Shown one piece after another: positions 1-5,721 of a stretch of DNA of 5,721 nucleotides (positions are counted from its first letter, which is position 1; each line of letters opens with the position of its first letter). The DNA lies in the IMG/VR virus record IMGVR_UViG_3300045988_001523; one strand, given 5' to 3'. The notes beneath the pieces are model-generated. The model saw only the letters and a program-made list of their open reading frames with translations, did no database searches and was not told where the DNA came from. This DNA comes from a virus. A program made the translations under genes and the position numbers.

Positions 1-55
1 GTGCTGCTCCCGCGGTCTGTCCGTGCTATATCTTCTACGGTTCTTGCACTGCTTG
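1..55. repeat. Terminal direct repeat, copy A (circular-genome assembly overlap)
   Basis: Bases 1..55 (gtgctgctcccgcggtctgtccgtgctatatcttctacggttcttgcactgcttg) match 5667..5721 base for base. An ORF reads through both copies in the same frame. Confidence 0.95.
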
Positions 56-867: not shown

Positions 868-2553
868 TTAGATTGTATCGAGGCCCGGAATACTGTAGAT
901 CGGCATAGGACGTGTCCACGTCTGATCGTAGTACAGGTTTACTAAGAACTGATGGCTGTTCGAGCTCTGAACCGCAATTGTTCGGTCGATGTTCTCGGTA
1001 CCTTCCTGTATCCAGCTGCTGCTCAAGGTCGGAAGCTGTGTGTACTTGTCCGCATAGTGCCATGCGTCCAAGGTCTGAGCGTAGGTGCTCCGCATTTCGC
1101 CAGTGATCTGGTTCGTGCGGTACCTGTAGTCGGCCCACGCTTCCTGGTACCCAAAGACCTCTTCATCTTTGGCGTTCCCCTGTGCATAGATCTCTTGATT
1201 GAGTACTGCCTGTTCTCCCAGATTTGCAAGCATCGGGTCATAGTAACTGAATCTCGTGCTTCTGGTCCACAGTCGGCTGAGGCCCTGCTGATAGCTGTGA
1301 TCTACTCGGATTGCTGCCAGTCCGATGACATAGCCGTGCTCGGTTGCGCTGTAGGTGCACATGTTCCGGCTCATCGTCGTCATACTGTATGCACCGGTGT
1401 TGCCCTGCGGGCTCGTGCTGTCCGTTGCACTGGTCTGCACCACCTGATTGACGTTGATAGGCATCCTGTAGCCGCCGATGTACTCACTCCGGTCAAGTCG
1501 TGCGTCCGGACTGGTCACACCCCATGCACCCTGCAAGATTTCTTTGTACCGGGTGCCGGTTCTGGCGTCACGCTCGAAGATGTGTTGTACTGCGATCGCC
1601 TGCCGGAGTTCGTTGATCGTTGCCGCCGTTACGCTGCTGAGGTCTGCACCCATGTATGCCTTTTGACTGTAATTTCCGTTGTCGTAGTCGGTCTGCCCTG
1701 CCGTTTTGCTTGCCCAGAAATAGTTGCCTGTACTGTTGAACGGGTACCCTTCCAGCATTTTCGCGTTTTCGGCATCGGTTACCATGCTTCCGTATTCCCA
1801 CGCTCCGGCCTTTGCTCCTGATACTGTTCCGTAGCTTTTTGCTTCTTTTGTCAGTGCGGTGTCGATGAATGCTCGCACCGGTGCGTTGCCTCCAAGCGGG
1901 ATCGTCACCGGATCAACTGCTTTTTGCGGCGACGGCAAACAGCTTGTGAAGTAATCTTTGTACTTGCATACTTTCAGCGGCATGCCGCCTTTTTCGGCGT
2001 CGCTCAGGCTCGTGCCCGTGTTGCTGCCTGCGGTCGTTGCGTCGCTTTTGCTCATGGTCACCGGCTGTTGCAAGTTTTCATCCCGGAACCACTCGTTCCA
2101 CACTTTGCAGTATGCCCGGAACGGCATTGAGTTCACGCTCAGGTTTGGTACTCCGGTCGGAATGCCGAAATAGTCTGCCAGTGTGCCAACATTCCAGCCG
2201 CCGCTCGGTGCAGTCGTCTGCGGCGTGGTGTATTCCGTTGCTTCTGCCCAAAACGTTTTGTCGTTCTGGCCCATGAGATTTTCAAAGTGCTCCCACAGCA
2301 GGCGTGCCGGTACGAAGAAGAAATAGTAGTCCATATACGCATTATCCATGACCGGATAAAGCGGCGTGGACATTCGCGCCAATGCGTTCACGTTCACTTT
2401 GAAGGTATCTGCCGGTAACACCTCATCAAGATAAATGGGGACCAAATCGCCCTCGTTGATGGTCGTCAAAAGACTGTAGTCTCGTTTGAATCTTGCTCGC
2501 CGGATTTCTGCGTGTGGCACCTGACTATAGTGCTGCTCACTGTTTCTGTTCAT
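868..2553 (-). CDS. VP1: Major capsid protein VP1 (Microviridae F-protein family)
   Basis: 561-aa ORF with ATG at 2553 and GAGGTG 7 nt upstream. The N-terminus (...SQVPHAEIRRARFKRDYSLLTTINEGDLVPIYLDEVLPADTF...MSTPLYPVMDNAYMDYYFFFVPARLLW) has the typical gokushovirus VP1 pattern. Size and position (after the scaffold gene, before VP2) fit. Confidence 0.95.
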   Translation of the reverse strand: MNRNSEQHYSQVPHAEIRRARFKRDYSLLTTINEGDLVPIYLDEVLPADTFKVNVNALARMSTPLYPVMDNAYMDYYFFFVPARLLWEHFENLMGQNDKTFWAEATEYTTPQTTAPSGGWNVGTLADYFGIPTGVPNLSVNSMPFRAYCKVWNEWFRDENLQQPVTMSKSDATTAGSNTGTSLSDAEKGGMPLKVCKYKDYFTSCLPSPQKAVDPVTIPLGGNAPVRAFIDTALTKEAKSYGTVSGAKAGAWEYGSMVTDAENAKMLEGYPFNSTGNYFWASKTAGQTDYDNGNYSQKAYMGADLSSVTAATINELRQAIAVQHIFERDARTGTRYKEILQGAWGVTSPDARLDRSEYIGGYRMPINVNQVVQTSATDSTSPQGNTGAYSMTTMSRNMCTYSATEHGYVIGLAAIRVDHSYQQGLSRLWTRSTRFSYYDPMLANLGEQAVLNQEIYAQGNAKDEEVFGYQEAWADYRYRTNQITGEMRSTYAQTLDAWHYADKYTQLPTLSSSWIQEGTENIDRTIAVQSSNSHQFLVNLYYDQTWTRPMPIYSIPGLDTI

Positions 2554-3052
2554 CTGCTTTCACCTCGTTTTTTGTCTTTTTGACGGTTGCGTTGCTCTGA
2601 TCCGGCTGTGTTGCAGCATCGTTTTTCGTCAAAATGCCCATTTTTTCAAGCCACTCGTTTTCGCCTGCGGTCGCTGCCCACTGCTCAAAGTTCATGCCGA
2701 ATTTCTGCCGGATTTCCAGCGGCAGCTGGTTGAACTTCTCTCGCTGCTCGTTCATCATGTTGAGGTATTCCGTGTACGTCTGCGGCAGTTTGCTGGTGTC
2801 GATGTAATATCCCGGTGTTGCCAGTGCGGTGTCGTCGCCTGCTGCGTATCGGCTCAAGATCGCCATCACGTCACACTGTTCTCTGTAGCTCTGGATTTTC
2901 TCGTAAGTGTTTACATCACCTACTTTTTCCAGATATGCTTCACCCCGTTCATCGTACCTTTCCCGGTATTCCGGCTCGAGTATGTTTCCTGGACAGCTCG
3001 GTTTGCTCTCCGGCTTTTCGTCTCCGTATGGCTTAAAGATTTTTGCCGGCAT
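2537..3052 (-). CDS. VP3: Internal scaffolding protein VP3 (Chlamydia-phage scaffold-like)
   Basis: The track ORF starts at TTG 3070. I prefer ATG 3052, which has AGGAGGAG (3067..3060) 7 nt upstream and gives 171 aa. It is an acidic/helical protein (...YEKIQSYREQCDVMAILSRYAAGDDTAL...QLPLEIRQKFGMNFEQW...) resembling gokushovirus VP3. Its 3' end overlaps the VP1 start by 17 nt. Confidence 0.8.
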   Translation of the reverse strand: MPAKIFKPYGDEKPESKPSCPGNILEPEYRERYDERGEAYLEKVGDVNTYEKIQSYREQCDVMAILSRYAAGDDTALATPGYYIDTSKLPQTYTEYLNMMNEQREKFNQLPLEIRQKFGMNFEQWAATAGENEWLEKMGILTKNDAATQPDQSNATVKKTKNEVKADEQKQ

Positions 3053-3284
3053 GTTTCTTCTCCTCCTCAAGGTTATAGACCAGCTGCGGCACGCACGGAT
3101 TGATTGCGCCGGTTTCGTTGTCGTAGGTACCCATCAGATAGATGCGCTTGTCGTCGCAGTCTGCCGGTTCGTTCTCCTGCATCAGCCACTTAAAAGTGCG
3201 CTGGGCCACCTTTTCGTTTACCACCATTAGGTTTGCAAAGGTTCCTGCCAGTTCGTCCTTGATAGAATACAGATTGAAAGTCAT
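3033..3284 (-). CDS. Small non-structural protein, VP5-like by size, position and N-terminal pattern
   Basis: 83-aa ORF with ATG at 3284 and AAGGAG upstream (agaaaggagaacaacaATG). Its N-terminus (MTFNLYSIKDELAGTFANLMVVNEKVAQRTFKWL) resembles the M..F.I.D.K...F..P......A.R.F pattern of small gokushovirus proteins encoded just upstream of VP3. It overlaps the VP3 start by 20 nt. Confidence 0.55.
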   Translation of the reverse strand: MTFNLYSIKDELAGTFANLMVVNEKVAQRTFKWLMQENEPADCDDKRIYLMGTYDNETGAINPCVPQLVYNLEEEKKHAGKNL

Positions 3285-3515: not shown

Positions 3516-3926
3516 TTACTCCACCCCCTTTCTGTATCGTTCGGTGCTGCGCACGTCTACGTGCACAAAGTTGGTATATCTGATAACGCCGCCAGCATCT
3601 CCTAATGCTTTACTTGCGTATTCAGCCACTTCTTTGCTGGTATGGCCTTTGACCTGTATGTCTGCTGCCATGCCTTTCATGTGATAGCTCAGCGGTCGGC
3701 CGCCGACTGCTTTGTTGTGTGCCGGTGTTCTGTATGCGCTGGTGATCGTCACCGGTTCGTTGAAGTGTACACGGATGATCTCCAGCAGCTTTACCAGTGC
3801 TTTTGCAATGATGATAGGTTCGCTGCCGTCTTTGCAGGCATATTCCCTGTACTTAAAGTGCGTAGATACGTTGTTTTTACCATCTTCGGTTCTGGTTGTC
3901 ACAATCATCTCTCTGGTTTCTGCCAT
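3516..3926 (-). CDS. Zn-dependent peptidoglycan peptidase, Peptidase_M15 (M15_3 / D-Ala-D-Ala carboxypeptidase-like) family; candidate endolysin
   Basis: The track ORF starts at GTG 3935. I prefer ATG 3926, which has GAGGTG 6 nt upstream and gives 136 aa. Motifs include ITSAYRTPAHNKAVGGRPLSYHMKGMAADI, which carries the H-x6-D metal ligands (SYHMKGMAAD), and FVHVDVR, which carries the third His. These match the SxYR...N..vGG...S.H..G.A.D ... H.D signature of M15 peptidases. I see no N-terminal signal peptide or TM segment. Confidence 0.85.
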   Translation of the reverse strand: MAETREMIVTTRTEDGKNNVSTHFKYREYACKDGSEPIIIAKALVKLLEIIRVHFNEPVTITSAYRTPAHNKAVGGRPLSYHMKGMAADIQVKGHTSKEVAEYASKALGDAGGVIRYTNFVHVDVRSTERYRKGVE

Positions 3927-3945
3927 TTGTATCACCTCTGGTTGT

Positions 3946-3972
3946 ATTGTAGCATAAAAAAAAAAACGTCAA
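3946..3972 (-). promoter_or_regulatory. Candidate sigma70-type promoter for the peptidase/structural (late) gene block
   Basis: The minus strand reads TTGACG (3972..3967), a 15-nt spacer (T11 + ATGC), then TACAAT (3951..3946). The TG of TGCTACAAT sits in extended -10 position. The element lies ~20 nt upstream of the peptidase ATG. The spacer is short, so this is tentative. Confidence 0.4.
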
Positions 3973-3987
3973 GCTGTTCGCTTAACG
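3956..3987 (-). terminator. Rho-independent terminator downstream of VP4
   Basis: The minus-strand transcript reads CGUUAAGC-GAACA-GCUUGACG. This is an 8-bp stem including one U-G wobble, with a 5-nt loop (3987..3967). A run of 11 U follows immediately (3966..3956). Confidence 0.7.
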
Positions 3988-3999
3988 TTTTGGTGGGTA

Positions 4000-4073
4000 G
4001 GCCTGCTATTTAACTCCCCGCCGCAGCGGCTCATTAAATTTATTTAGCGCAGGCCGTCAGACTTTTCCGTCTG
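4000..4073. repeat. Nested inverted repeats in the VP4-peptidase non-coding region
   Basis: GGCCTGC (4000..4006) pairs with GCAGGCC (4049..4055). This pair encloses a GCCG-CAG-CGGC mini-hairpin (4020..4030) and AT-rich palindromic text (TAAATTTA). CAGAC-TTTTCC-GTCTG (4058..4073) follows. Confidence 0.55.
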
Positions 4074-4094
4074 CTGCTCCTATGCTTATTTAGT

Positions 4095-5192
4095 TTAAAT
4101 TTCTTCCCGAATCAGTTTCTTCATCCTGTCTTGCATTGCTTTGTCTTTTGCGGTATAGTATTCTTGCATGTTTAAGCCGGTCTGTTGTAGCTGTGCAAAG
4201 AGTGCATCATTTGCGATTCTTCGACGTTCTCGCTTGATGGCTCTCAGCTCTTCAGATTCGGCTTTTACTATTGTGTCTTCTATACCTGTTGTTTCTGCTT
4301 CGCTTAGTGGTGCGCTGTTGCTGTGTTCCAGATCAAACAGTTTATCAAAGTATCTTGGAGGTTTACACGTTTTTCCGTTTGCTAGTTGGATGCTATCTTT
4401 TGCATAGATTTCATCTTTGTGCTCAAAATAGTACCGCTGTCCGATTCCTTTACTCATCATGCAGCGTTCTGGTGTGATTCCTAGTTCTTGGTAATACTCT
4501 TGTCCCGCTTTGCCGTACACCTTTTTCGTGGTGTATCGTGCGGTGTATGCCATGTTTTTCCACTCTGCTGCTGCTATGACCACATGTCCCATGCCCCAGA
4601 GCTTTGTTATCCAATCTACATTGTAGTAAGTATATCCTTTCTCTTTTTTGTATGTTTTGAGTTCGTCTTGCTGTATTGGTAGGCTATACACGATCGCATG
4701 ATAGTGTGGTCTATGTGTTTTGCTGCCGTATTCGCCAGCTTGGAAATACATCAGTGCTTCCTGATTCCTCTTGTGGTATTCTAGCCAGCGTCTCAGCCTT
4801 TTCCAGAACTTCTGCATGTCCTCGTCGCACAGGCTCAGATTCTCGGTTATGACTTCTCCTGTTAGTTTGTCGTATGTGTATCGGTATGGAACGTGCTCGT
4901 TGTCGTAGGTGAGAGTTAAAAACCATGCGTTCTTGTGGTATGGCAGCTCCATTTCCATTCTGTTTGCCCAGCTGGAAGAGTTTTGCAGTTTGCACCCTGT
5001 GCACTGTCCGCATGGTATGAGCTGTGCTTCGTCTAATCTGAGCATGTTTAACAGTTCGCTTTCTTGGCTTACGATCTCTATACCGTCGATGATGATTCCA
5101 TTTTTCCGTGTATGTTCATCACTCCATAGGTATTTTTTCAGACTGGTTATCTGTCCGTTTTTGAACCGGACTAAAGGTTTTGTGCACCCCAT
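4095..5192 (-). CDS. VP4: Replication initiation protein VP4 (HUH rolling-circle endonuclease, phiX174 gpA-like)
   Basis: Motifs present are FLTLTY (RCR motif 1), RPHYHAIVY (HUH motif) and AYTARYTTKK (paired catalytic Tyr, Y-x3-Y). There is also the PCGQCTGCK cysteine cluster usual near the N-terminus of gokushovirus VP4. The track starts the ORF at TTG 5264. I prefer ATG 5192 (MGCTKPLVRF..., 365 aa), with GGAAGGAG ending 12 nt upstream. ATG 5228 is an alternative, but it lies inside the 16-bp hairpin. Confidence 0.93.
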   Translation of the reverse strand: MGCTKPLVRFKNGQITSLKKYLWSDEHTRKNGIIIDGIEIVSQESELLNMLRLDEAQLIPCGQCTGCKLQNSSSWANRMEMELPYHKNAWFLTLTYDNEHVPYRYTYDKLTGEVITENLSLCDEDMQKFWKRLRRWLEYHKRNQEALMYFQAGEYGSKTHRPHYHAIVYSLPIQQDELKTYKKEKGYTYYNVDWITKLWGMGHVVIAAAEWKNMAYTARYTTKKVYGKAGQEYYQELGITPERCMMSKGIGQRYYFEHKDEIYAKDSIQLANGKTCKPPRYFDKLFDLEHSNSAPLSEAETTGIEDTIVKAESEELRAIKRERRRIANDALFAQLQQTGLNMQEYYTAKDKAMQDRMKKLIREEI

Positions 5193-5216
5193 GGATGTTT
5201 CATTCTCCTTCCCTGC

Positions 5217-5258
5217 CAACTGGCCCATATACCCTTCTTGATGTATATGGGCCAGTTG
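5217..5258. repeat. Perfect 16-bp inverted repeat (42-nt stem-loop) between the RHH gene and the VP4 start
   Basis: CAACTGGCCCATATAC (5217..5232) and GTATATGGGCCAGTTG (5243..5258) are exact reverse complements, separated by a 10-nt loop (5233..5242). No U/T run follows on either strand. The VP4 Shine-Dalgarno begins a few nt after the stem on the minus strand. Confidence 0.9.
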
Positions 5259-5295
5259 ACACAAAATCGCTTGACCGTACTGTCAATTAGATGGA

Positions 5296-5490
5296 TTATT
5301 GTTTCTTCTGCCATTCATTTGTGAATGTGTACCCCGTCATCTTGTGGCAGTACGATACAATTGCTTCCCGGATGATGTCACTTTGGTTCATGTTCCATCC
5401 TCTGGTGCTCATTTCGTGTTGGAGTGCTTCAAGTGCCTTCTTTTCACGGTCGGTCAAATTGATGTTGATTCTTTTGGTCACGTTTTTCAT
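5296..5490 (-). CDS. Ribbon-helix-helix (Arc/MetJ/CopG-like) DNA-binding protein, putative transcriptional regulator
   Basis: 64-aa ORF with ATG at 5490 and AGGAGG 7 nt upstream. KRININL has the alternating pattern of an RHH beta-strand. TDREKKALEALQHEMS fits helix A, G-W-N-M-N-Q-S a turn, and DIIREAIVSY helix B. It is the first gene after a strong promoter and lies directly upstream of VP4. The fold assignment is by pattern only. Confidence 0.65.
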   Translation of the reverse strand: MKNVTKRININLTDREKKALEALQHEMSTRGWNMNQSDIIREAIVSYCHKMTGYTFTNEWQKKQ

Positions 5491-5508
5491 GTTTTGTCCT
5501 CCTACTTT

Positions 5509-5564
5509 AAGTGTGTGGTTGGTACACTCATAATATACACCTTCTTTCTACACTTTTCAAGTGT
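5509..5564 (-). promoter_or_regulatory. Array of GTGT-core repeats across the promoter (candidate operator)
   Basis: The minus strand has (A/G)GTGTA at 5554..5549, 5541..5536 and 5528..5523, an exact 13-nt period (plus strand TACAC at 5549, 5536, 5523). Inverted copies ACACTT sit at 5564..5559 and 5514..5509. The first pair forms the palindrome ACACTT-GAA-AAGTGT, centred on the -35 hexamer. Confidence 0.5.
5532..5560 (-). promoter_or_regulatory. Sigma70-type promoter for the RHH-VP4 (early) block
   Basis: The minus strand reads TTGAAA (5560..5555), a 17-nt spacer, then TATATT (5537..5532). It lies in the 73-nt gap between the VP2 stop and the RHH ATG. Confidence 0.65.
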
Positions 5565-5721
5565 TATTTTTTGCCTTTCTTTGTGCTGAAATCTCCGTGG
5601 ACTTTTCCACTGACGTTCGTGTTTTTGCCTGTTTCGGTGCTGCTGCTTCTTTCGGTTCCGGTTCCGGTGCTGCTCCCGCGGTCTGTCCGTGCTATATCTT
5701 CTACGGTTCTTGCACTGCTTG
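5564..5721 (-). CDS. VP2: VP2 C-terminal end (same gene as 1..851; 5667..5721 duplicates 1..55)
   Basis: The VP2 frame continues through the repeat as ...RGSSTGTGTERSSSTETGKNTNVSGKVHGDFSTKKGKK, with stop TAA at 5566..5564. On the 5,666-nt circle this gives a single 317-codon gene. Confidence 0.8.
   Translation of the reverse strand, partial: SSARTVEDIARTDRGSSTGTGTERSSSTETGKNTNVSGKVHGDFSTKKGKK
5667..5721. repeat. Terminal direct repeat, copy B (circular-genome assembly overlap)
   Basis: Exact 55-nt duplicate of 1..55. This implies a circular unit of 5,666 nt. Confidence 0.95.

Follow-up and report, generated by a model that had tools for sequence, protein, structure and literature searches.

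A probable ribbon-helix-helix regulator gene and its conserved promoter-repeat block ahead of the replication initiator gene in gokushovirus-type microviruses

Does a microvirus regulate the synthesis of its own replication initiator? The question is raised by the IMG/VR virus record IMGVR_UViG_3300045988_001523, a stretch of 5,721 nucleotides (nt), hereafter the window, in which an open reading frame (ORF) of 64 amino acids (aa), probably encoding a DNA-binding protein of the ribbon-helix-helix (RHH) type, lies between a promoter filled with repeats and the gene of the replication initiator Rep (VP4). Gene expression in microviruses is usually described as constitutive and driven by promoters and terminators, and accessory genes are almost absent. 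In a global survey of microviruses, the only accessory genes that could be assigned were those for peptidases and methyltransferases, and few small proteins were assigned a function (PMC9239249). An earlier note on this DNA, made from the sequence alone, had read the locus as a repressor gene heading a regulator-Rep operon and held that the classical Microviridae models (phiX174, Chlamydia phages) are not known to encode a dedicated transcription factor; full-text literature searches found no publication on an RHH protein, CopG or a transcription factor in this family. As compared across relatives, the ORF is a real and syntenic gene, and the promoter-repeat block ahead of it is constrained at the nucleotide level and is present or absent jointly with the RHH gene.

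The 64-aa ORF and the AGGAGG that precedes it were both found as the earlier note had described them, and relatives have ribosome sites of the AGGAG or GGGG type at the position seen in the window. A search of 5.8 billion proteins gave 28 close homologues of the 64-aa protein (64-92% identity), on contigs that in no case exceeded microvirus size, and a full HMMER scan of 1.84 billion cluster representatives matched only 34 clusters, nearly all of 55-125 aa. The surroundings of the gene were compared in 45 loci (15 contigs from an exact protein look-up and 30 IMG/VR loci). The order VP1, VP2, 64-aa ORF, Rep was kept in 45 of 45, with the ORF on the same strand as Rep and separated from it by 60-154 nt, so that the homologues at the matching locus in related microviruses, which the earlier note had proposed to look for, were found. 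The ORF also lies between VP2 and Rep in all related contigs with the cassette (57 distinct promoter-gene cassettes), and when the search was started from Rep, it was present in every one of the 41 loci (Rep 50-74% identical) that had sufficient upstream sequence. The ratio of nonsynonymous to synonymous substitution rates (dN/dS) against the window stayed below 1 in all pairs, and the values of the three closest relatives were 0.07, 0.16 and 0.37; note that the synonymous divergence of the ORF from the window is saturated for most relatives. A lack of conservation or of purifying selection, which would have spoken against the earlier reading, was thus not what the relatives displayed, and these comparisons indicate that the 64-aa ORF is a real conserved gene under purifying selection. 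Copies with 55-57% identity are also found in the GenBank records KX513873, MG945186 and MG945797 without any feature annotated over them (in KX513873, locus L046, the copy is at 5285..5452). In locus L071, two adjacent RHH-like ORFs stand ahead of Rep as a tandem duplication, and the 125-aa homologue P0037 is fused into a single protein of two repeats; the duplication and the fusion are consistent with a dimeric module.

The assignment of the protein to the RHH fold was approached with profiles, structure prediction and residue conservation. The window protein matched Pfam RHH_1 with E = 0.024 and 15 bits, not reaching the curated cut-off of 20.5, and the same profile was matched by 23 of the 29 close members of the family and by 20 of the 39 diverse ones (best E = 1.1e-4). 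Further occasional Pfam matches within the family were to 56B_RHH, CcdA, RHH_3 and DUF6290; the NCBIfam matches were to aCcr1 (19 members), the ORF56 copy-control protein (five members, best 1e-4) and NikR; and a PHROGs family named 'transcriptional repressor' was matched at E = 0.04. When the family profile was compared with the Protein Data Bank (PDB), the three top matches were TTHA0139 (E = 0.023, full length), a ParD antitoxin and ORF56, all of which we take to be RHH proteins, although single-sequence and close-family profile searches of solved structures returned noise only. The program hhalign placed the family and CopG in full-length register across 40 columns (P = 3.5e-4), KRININL standing opposite KRLTITL, and detected nothing against Arc. 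The AlphaFold2 (AF2) monomer of the window protein (predicted local distance difference test, pLDDT, 78) has an extended N-terminus and helices at 14-29 and 36-52, the look expected of an RHH monomer without its partner strand; its best PDB fold match was NikR, at E = 1.1, which is not significant. The tandem homologue P0037 was modelled as strand-helix-helix twice, with both strands recognized by DSSP, at a pLDDT of only 54, and the fold search with this low-confidence model gave meaningless matches.

Residue conservation follows the same layout. Polar and hydrophobic residues alternate in the strand K6-R-I-N-I-N-L-T13 (KRININLT); across 39 diverse members R7, N9, L12, T13 and R41 are invariant and N11, D38, I40, A43 and I44 nearly so, and S37-D38 and R41 are conserved where helix B begins, after an inter-helix loop about five residues longer than that of CopG. 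The conserved positions of the strand and of the cap and first turn of helix B are those with which RHH proteins contact bases and backbone. Downstream, the window protein carries TGYTFTNEW as its version of a conserved C-terminal tail, TGYTFxNEW. Across the family, the C-terminal tails are modular and the DNA-reading strand is fixed. The ORF ends in EEDLPF in loci L027-L031 and L033, in DDDDLPY in L057 and in NDDLPF in the second ORF of L071, and ends of the acidic-LPF type also occur in the homologues P0041, P0045, P0048, P0050 and P0053; these tails are hints of a Firmicutes host and of recruitment or turnover functions. RHH is the only assignment on which the weak profile matches repeatedly agree, and because these weak signals agree across independent libraries, the 64-aa protein is probably an RHH protein, as judged from profiles and models. 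The RHH layout proposed in the earlier note thus stands as far as the order strand-helix-helix and the recurrence of RHH matches are concerned, but the matches from the profile search were all below threshold.

The promoter read by the earlier note as TTGAAA-17-TATATT is the best sigma-70-like match in the window (10/12) and is conserved in relatives as TTGACA-17-TATAWT. Its description of the repeats was also accurate: five half-sites with a GTGT core, a 13-nt period, flanking inverted copies and a palindrome at the -35 are all present. On the minus strand, RGTGTA direct repeats occupy 5554..5549, 5541..5536 and 5528..5523 with an exact 13-nt period, and inverted copies, ACACTT in the minus-strand sense, occupy 5564..5559 and 5514..5509, the former making with AAGTGT (5555..5550) the palindrome ACACTTGAAAAGTGT over the -35. 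Six hexamer matches (five cores) fall within 56 nt, compared with a maximum of four, reached in 2 of 1000 dinucleotide-preserving shuffles, for patterns that were picked after the data had been seen. An extended -10 reading of GGTG-TATAWT was rejected, the TG being displaced by one base. Inside Rep, at 4516..4547, three RGTGTA/TACACC hexamers form a second cluster; it was rejected as a regulatory site since the hexamers coincide with codons of the catalytic Y-T-A-R-Y-T motif of Rep, and is probably a by-product of coding.

To what extent these elements are kept was examined with 32 non-redundant upstream regions, which could be aligned almost without gaps, and invariance was counted over the 57 distinct cassettes. 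The 17-nt spacing and the -10 TATAWT are universal in the aligned regions and the -35 is mostly TTGACA; among 30 relatives outside the closest subgroup, the only exception is L036 (TTGAAG). Universal conservation extends over a longer block, from about -22 to +25, with the sequence GAAAAGRGGTGTATAWTATGRGTGTA-N2-AATC-N2-ACACYT, in which two RGTGTA copies cover the start of the -10 and the predicted transcription start, and in the part GGTGTATAWTATGRGTGTA, 16 of 19 positions are invariant. Only a few dozen bases downstream, the codons of KRININLT are synonymously scrambled (six codons are used for Leu and four for Thr, and 57% of the synonymous codons match the window), indicating that the block is kept by selection at the nucleotide level; the same scrambling rules out recent horizontal spread as the cause of the promoter conservation. 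The downstream inverted copy has ACAC in 30 of the 32 sequences and ACGC in two. An intact palindrome at the -35 is seen in the window alone, with degenerate forms in L001 and L015; in other relatives, the sequence following TTGACA is variable, most often AACACAG and also AGTGGAG or TGAGCAA. Of the operator of five sites proposed in the earlier note, three are therefore conserved, namely the -10 copy, the start copy and the downstream inverted copy, whereas the -35 palindrome and the spacer copy are limited to the closest relatives; over the -10 and the start, the conserved set comprises two copies in direct and one in inverted orientation. A distant subgroup, with the strand RRINVNLT, has another layout, with ATACA after the -35 and (G/A)TGTAT copies at the -10 and the ribosome site (GTGTATAAT at the -10 and GGTGTATGTT over the ribosome site and start codon); in one distant member, a perfect 8-bp palindrome, ATACATCA-N5-TGATGTAT, crosses the spacer and overlaps the -35 and also the first -10 base.

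The exact 19-mer GGTGTATAATATGRGTGTA was found in 25 bacterial contigs, with about 17 expected by chance in 1.2e12 positions, and none of these contigs has the gene. Nine of the 25 matches represent one orthologous thioredoxin promoter in Eubacteriales, where the 19-mer stands beside a site of the Crp/Fnr type (L093, 5041..5059; L096, L102, L105, L107, L108, L111, L113 and L114). The 19-mer can serve as a plain promoter core, which leaves its invariance in the microviruses unexplained. An invariant ATG just after the -10, with GAGGTG before it, opens a mini-ORF of nine codons, MSVPTTHLK (5488..5531, minus strand), which has 9-13 codons across relatives and whose stop overlaps the ribosome site of the RHH gene. 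It is probably not coding, judging from its alignment: third positions are invariant and first and second positions vary, the position of the stop shifts, and the ATG is upstream of any likely start of the transcript from this promoter.

How is the gene joined to Rep? The position of the ORF ahead of Rep on a shared strand, as anticipated in the earlier note, was confirmed, and a strong terminator stands after Rep. Contrary to that note, the ORF and Rep are not immediately adjacent: Rep really begins with the ATG at 5192 (MGCTKPL...; relatives begin M-x-C-T-K/R-P-L), leaving a gap of 103 nt with a large conserved hairpin. The DNA fold of this hairpin has -21.7 kcal/mol (z = -5.9), and in 19 diverse relatives, 13 of its 15 pairs have compensatory double changes with no G-U pair, so that a structure at the DNA level fits better than one in RNA. 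The loop, which reads ATCAAGAAGG and CCTTCTTGAT on the two strands, is near-invariant in its ATCAAG motif (ATCAAGA in most relatives, GTCAAGA in L020), and the 5' flank TTGTGTCA (5264..5257), which contains another GTGT core, is conserved. With no T run after it, the hairpin is not a canonical terminator. A search of Rfam gave no known RNA family, the only match being a spurious miRNA-like one to the large hairpin. The loop complement CTTGAT (window 5233..5242), on the strand antisense to the genes, is the same hexamer that spans the phiX174 gene-A nick site CAACTTG^ATATT (4299..4312); this likeness may be accidental, or it may hint at where the nick site lies and which strand is packaged. Between the main promoter and Rep, the only promoter-like match is TTCACA-16-AACAAT (9/12, 5325..5298), inside the 3' end of the ORF.

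Relatives lacking the gene help to separate the hairpin from the regulator. No ORF stands between VP2 and Rep in Dulem virus 202 (Rep 49% identical) or in Chicken microvirus mg4_115 (36%). Both are without the TTGACA/GTGTA promoter, and both have kept the hairpin, with the ATCAAG loop and the TTGTGTCA flank in the former and a diverged form (loop ACAAGTA, flank CTGTCA) in the latter. RHH-bearing genomes, for their part, are found at a Rep distance of 50% (L080-L083). Because the hairpin is retained in relatives without the RHH gene, it goes with Rep, and as far as these alignments tell, it is probably an origin or a Rep-recognition element outside the RHH module. The promoter, the repeats and the RHH gene are present or absent together and therefore form a separate cassette gained or lost as a unit.

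For the function of this cassette, we lean, with slightly better than even confidence, toward a CopG/RepB-like autorepressed regulator-Rep unit. The early unit would consist, in order, of the sigma-70 promoter, the RHH gene, the origin-like hairpin, Rep and the terminator. On infection, the consensus promoter would fire strongly and the transcript would read through the hairpin into Rep. As the RHH protein builds up, it would form dimers, whose beta-ribbon would read the GTGTA-type repeats over the -10 and the transcription start with R7, N9 and N11, and by binding these repeats cooperatively the dimers would shut their own promoter and hence Rep synthesis, the outcome being a fast, self-limited and capped burst of initiator. 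Dimerization, binding to GTGTA, repression and co-transcription with Rep are steps that we infer. Several observations weigh against this reading. Every RHH profile match of the window protein is below the curated cut-off, and the E-values of the fold searches are all at least 1. The site spacings of 13 and 12 bp exceed those of characterized RHH operators, and the alignment of relatives indicates that the picture of a five-site operator is over-read. Part of the block is promoter sequence, its exact 19-mer being found at ordinary bacterial promoters as well, and an RNA hairpin with tolerance of G-U pairs would be in full agreement with the conserved inverted pair RGTGT-N9-ACACY. A relative in which N11 is changed to F retains an identical DNA block, and therefore no signal of protein-DNA covariation is seen. 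The 103 nt between the stop of the ORF and Rep are occupied by an origin-like hairpin that is also present in RHH-less relatives, and some members of the family have a DLPF tail resembling the tip of SSB (the protein that binds DNA in its single-stranded form), which points to a role in replication or host recruitment.

These alternatives, which together with the autorepressed unit are not all mutually exclusive, can be weighed against the same evidence. That the ORF encodes a small conserved protein of another kind (a scaffolding, lysis or host-interaction peptide), its RHH matches being noise from a short helical protein, appears distinctly unlikely to us. Such a reading would account for the subthreshold profile and fold matches of the window protein and for the long inter-helix loop, but not for the recurrence of weak matches within one superfamily in four independent libraries with the whole domain in register, nor for the identity of the invariant residues, which are the ones used by RHH proteins (the alternating strand, the Ser-Asp cap and the Arg at the start of helix B). 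Unlikely, but deserving more weight than this, is that the RHH protein is mainly a replication factor which marks viral DNA and recruits or positions host or viral factors, with promoter binding secondary. RHH accessory proteins of HUH relaxases act at oriT, and here the gene always adjoins Rep and an origin-like covarying hairpin whose flank TTGTGTCA contains the GTGT core. The modular tails attached to a fixed DNA-reading strand would also suit such a factor, and the ends EEDLPF, DDLPF and DDDDLPY of homologues resemble DDDLPF, the C-terminal tip of Gram-positive SSB that mediates its protein-protein interactions (PMC5531588). The window protein, however, is without a DLPF tail, and in Streptococcus mutans an LPF end has also been reported to act as a motif for degradation by ClpXP (PMC5143411), so that such a tail need not mean recruitment. 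Furthermore, the strongest nucleotide constraint is at the promoter and not at the hairpin flank, and the hairpin with TTGTGTCA is intact in RHH-less relatives; therefore, it neither needs nor co-occurs with the protein.

A similarly low probability is given to the view that the GTGTA block combines a promoter core with a 5' transcript stem-loop, RGUGU-N9-ACACY, which tunes mRNA stability or translation, while the protein acts elsewhere or differently. The 5' copy does lie at the predicted transcription start, and pairing is possible at all six core pairs in each of the 32 sequences, with one pair being A-U (18), G-U (6) or G-C (8) and never A-C, and another being U-G twice; this tolerance of G-U is an RNA signature. 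The presence of the exact 19-mer at unrelated bacterial promoters, such as that of the Eubacteriales thioredoxin gene, could be taken in the same sense, but these matches are near chance (about 17 expected, 25 found, 9 of them one orthologous locus). At -5.1 kcal/mol (z = 0.09 relative to shuffled sequences), the stem-loop is weak, and genuine covariation is limited to a single pair, for which a symmetric operator would predict this change as well. The AATC loop bases and the ATG between the copies, which a simple stabilizer would not need, are invariant, and the distant subgroup has GTGTAT copies and a spacer palindrome without the hairpin. Very improbable, in our opinion, is a repressor of the immunity or lysogeny type, by which the phage would be kept as a prophage or in a carrier or plasmid-like state, although a repressor ahead of Rep could silence replication and block superinfecting relatives sharing the conserved operator. 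The gene set is of the lytic type, no integrase or recombinase was found among the window genes (ORF list and domain and PHROG profile searches), all homologues are on phage-sized contigs (about 5.5 kb), and in 185,579 species-representative genomes, no relative of the protein was found and neither the protein patterns nor the promoter 19-mer revealed an integrated copy, the 19-mer matches there being promoters at chance level. The lysogeny or plasmid-like persistence suggested in the earlier note is therefore unsupported. Somewhat less remote, and still improbable, is a plasmid-style module of copy control and immunity, acquired by this clade, in which Rep would be capped and superinfecting relatives would be silenced because the operator is almost invariant across the clade. 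If this were true, a low-level carrier or pseudolysogenic state could exist without integration. In sister lineages, the DLPF mimic of the SSB tip would hold host proteins of replication or repair on the viral DNA, and the family would be a modular adaptor through which the smallest DNA phages join the control of transcription to the recruitment of a replisome.

If the autorepressed regulator-Rep unit is real, at least one abundant gut clade actively regulates its own initiator. The presence and absence of the cassette among equally distant relatives offers a natural comparison of the benefit of regulation to a small phage, and the hairpin is a likely origin-type element for gokushovirus-like phages.

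The genome that carries this unit is that of a complete gokushovirus-type microvirus, and its features are summarized in Table 1. The first 55 nt of the window are repeated as the last 55 (1..55 = 5667..5721; the cut falls inside VP2), indicating a circular genome of 5666 nt, and all genes are on the minus strand. Faeces of humans and pigs are the source of the nearest GenBank records. The gene set is a standard lytic-type one with an M15 endolysin-type peptidase, an accessory lysis gene that L001 and L015 have and L002 and L003 lack. The 159-nt non-coding stretch after Rep (3936..4094, minus strand; DNA fold -25.1 kcal/mol, z = -3.1) may hold the complementary-strand origin, and the 11-T terminator there overlaps a possible late promoter, TTGACG-15-TACAAT.

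Table 1. Features of the window, with positions counted from its first letter
Feature	Position	Strand	Remarks
Sigma-70-type promoter TTGAAA-17-TATATT	5560..5532	minus	-35 at 5560..5555, -10 at 5537..5532
ACACTTGAAAAGTGT palindrome and spacer AGTGTA copy	5549..5564	minus	lineage-specific
Candidate operator, block GGTGTATATTATGAGTGTA	5523..5541	minus	two direct RGTGTA copies
Downstream inverted copy ACACTT	5514..5509	minus	conserved as ACACYT; partner RGTGT at 5528..5524
Shine-Dalgarno AGGAGG	5503..5498	minus	7 nt ahead of the ATG of the 64-aa ORF
64-aa ORF, probable RHH DNA-binding protein	5490..5296	minus	
Large hairpin	5261..5214	minus	19-bp stem in the window; loop motif ATCAAG
Rep (VP4), HUH replication initiator, 365 aa	4095..5192	minus	REP_ORF2-G2P 1.9e-15; phrog_942 1e-96
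Intrinsic-terminator-like hairpin	3963..3991	minus	12-bp stem and run of 11 T; closes the regulator-Rep unit
M15 peptidase	3935..3516	minus	Peptidase_M15_3 1e-24; PHROG endolysin
ORF5-type protein	3284..3033	minus	
Scaffold VP3	3070..2537	minus	Chlamy_scaf
Major capsid VP1	2553..868	minus	Phage_F, 2e-164
Basic protein, 39 aa		minus	
VP2	ORF wrapping the window ends, stop 5566..5564	minus	named by position

Among known systems, the closest parallel to the proposed autorepressed unit is CopG (RepA)-RepB of pMV158, which embodies the copy-control logic of a plasmid. In both, the gene of a very small protein, RHH in CopG and probably RHH here, shares its strand with an HUH rolling-circle initiator and stands directly ahead of it, one strong promoter carries repeats, and negative autoregulation is expected to cap the initiator; this gene order was found in 45 of 45 loci and in all assessable Rep relatives. 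The sequence similarity to CopG is marginal, however, and the protein described here has the longer loop and the added tail TGYTFxNEW. Here, the -10 and the start are covered by the conserved repeats, whereas pMV158 has a 13-bp pseudo-palindrome at the -35, and the hairpin is located between the two genes here and upstream of the promoter in pMV158. An antisense-RNA partner was not seen in the window, in which the opposite strand has only weak promoter-like matches (9/12, at 5048..5075 and 5271..5299), and the replicon is an encapsidated virus. ORF56 of the Sulfolobus plasmid pRN1 (NF041793; PDB 2k9i/3ft7) is likewise a small RHH copy-control factor, and the family matches it repeatedly below threshold. 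It differs in belonging to an archaeal plasmid with an unrelated replication protein, and the matches, which are below the cut-off, concern mainly helix B.

Conjugative relaxosomes offer another comparison, since their RHH accessory proteins TraY, TrwA and NikA accompany an HUH nuclease, and a nick region of the hairpin type is close by. The present locus resembles them in combining a probable RHH protein and an HUH nuclease near a hairpin, but here the hairpin and its flank persist without the RHH gene, so that the hairpin does not require the protein as a partner. Arc and Mnt of P22 and omega of pSM19035 are RHH repressors that bind cooperatively to short repeats overlapping promoters, and omega in particular uses mixed direct and inverted repeats, as are found here. 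Arc has no detectable sequence relation to the family, omega binds contiguous heptads at 7-bp intervals, compared with 12-13 bp between the sites here, and none of the three is known to regulate the HUH initiator of a single-stranded DNA virus. By analogy with these systems, the regulator-Rep cassette would be a familiar device in a new type of replicon.

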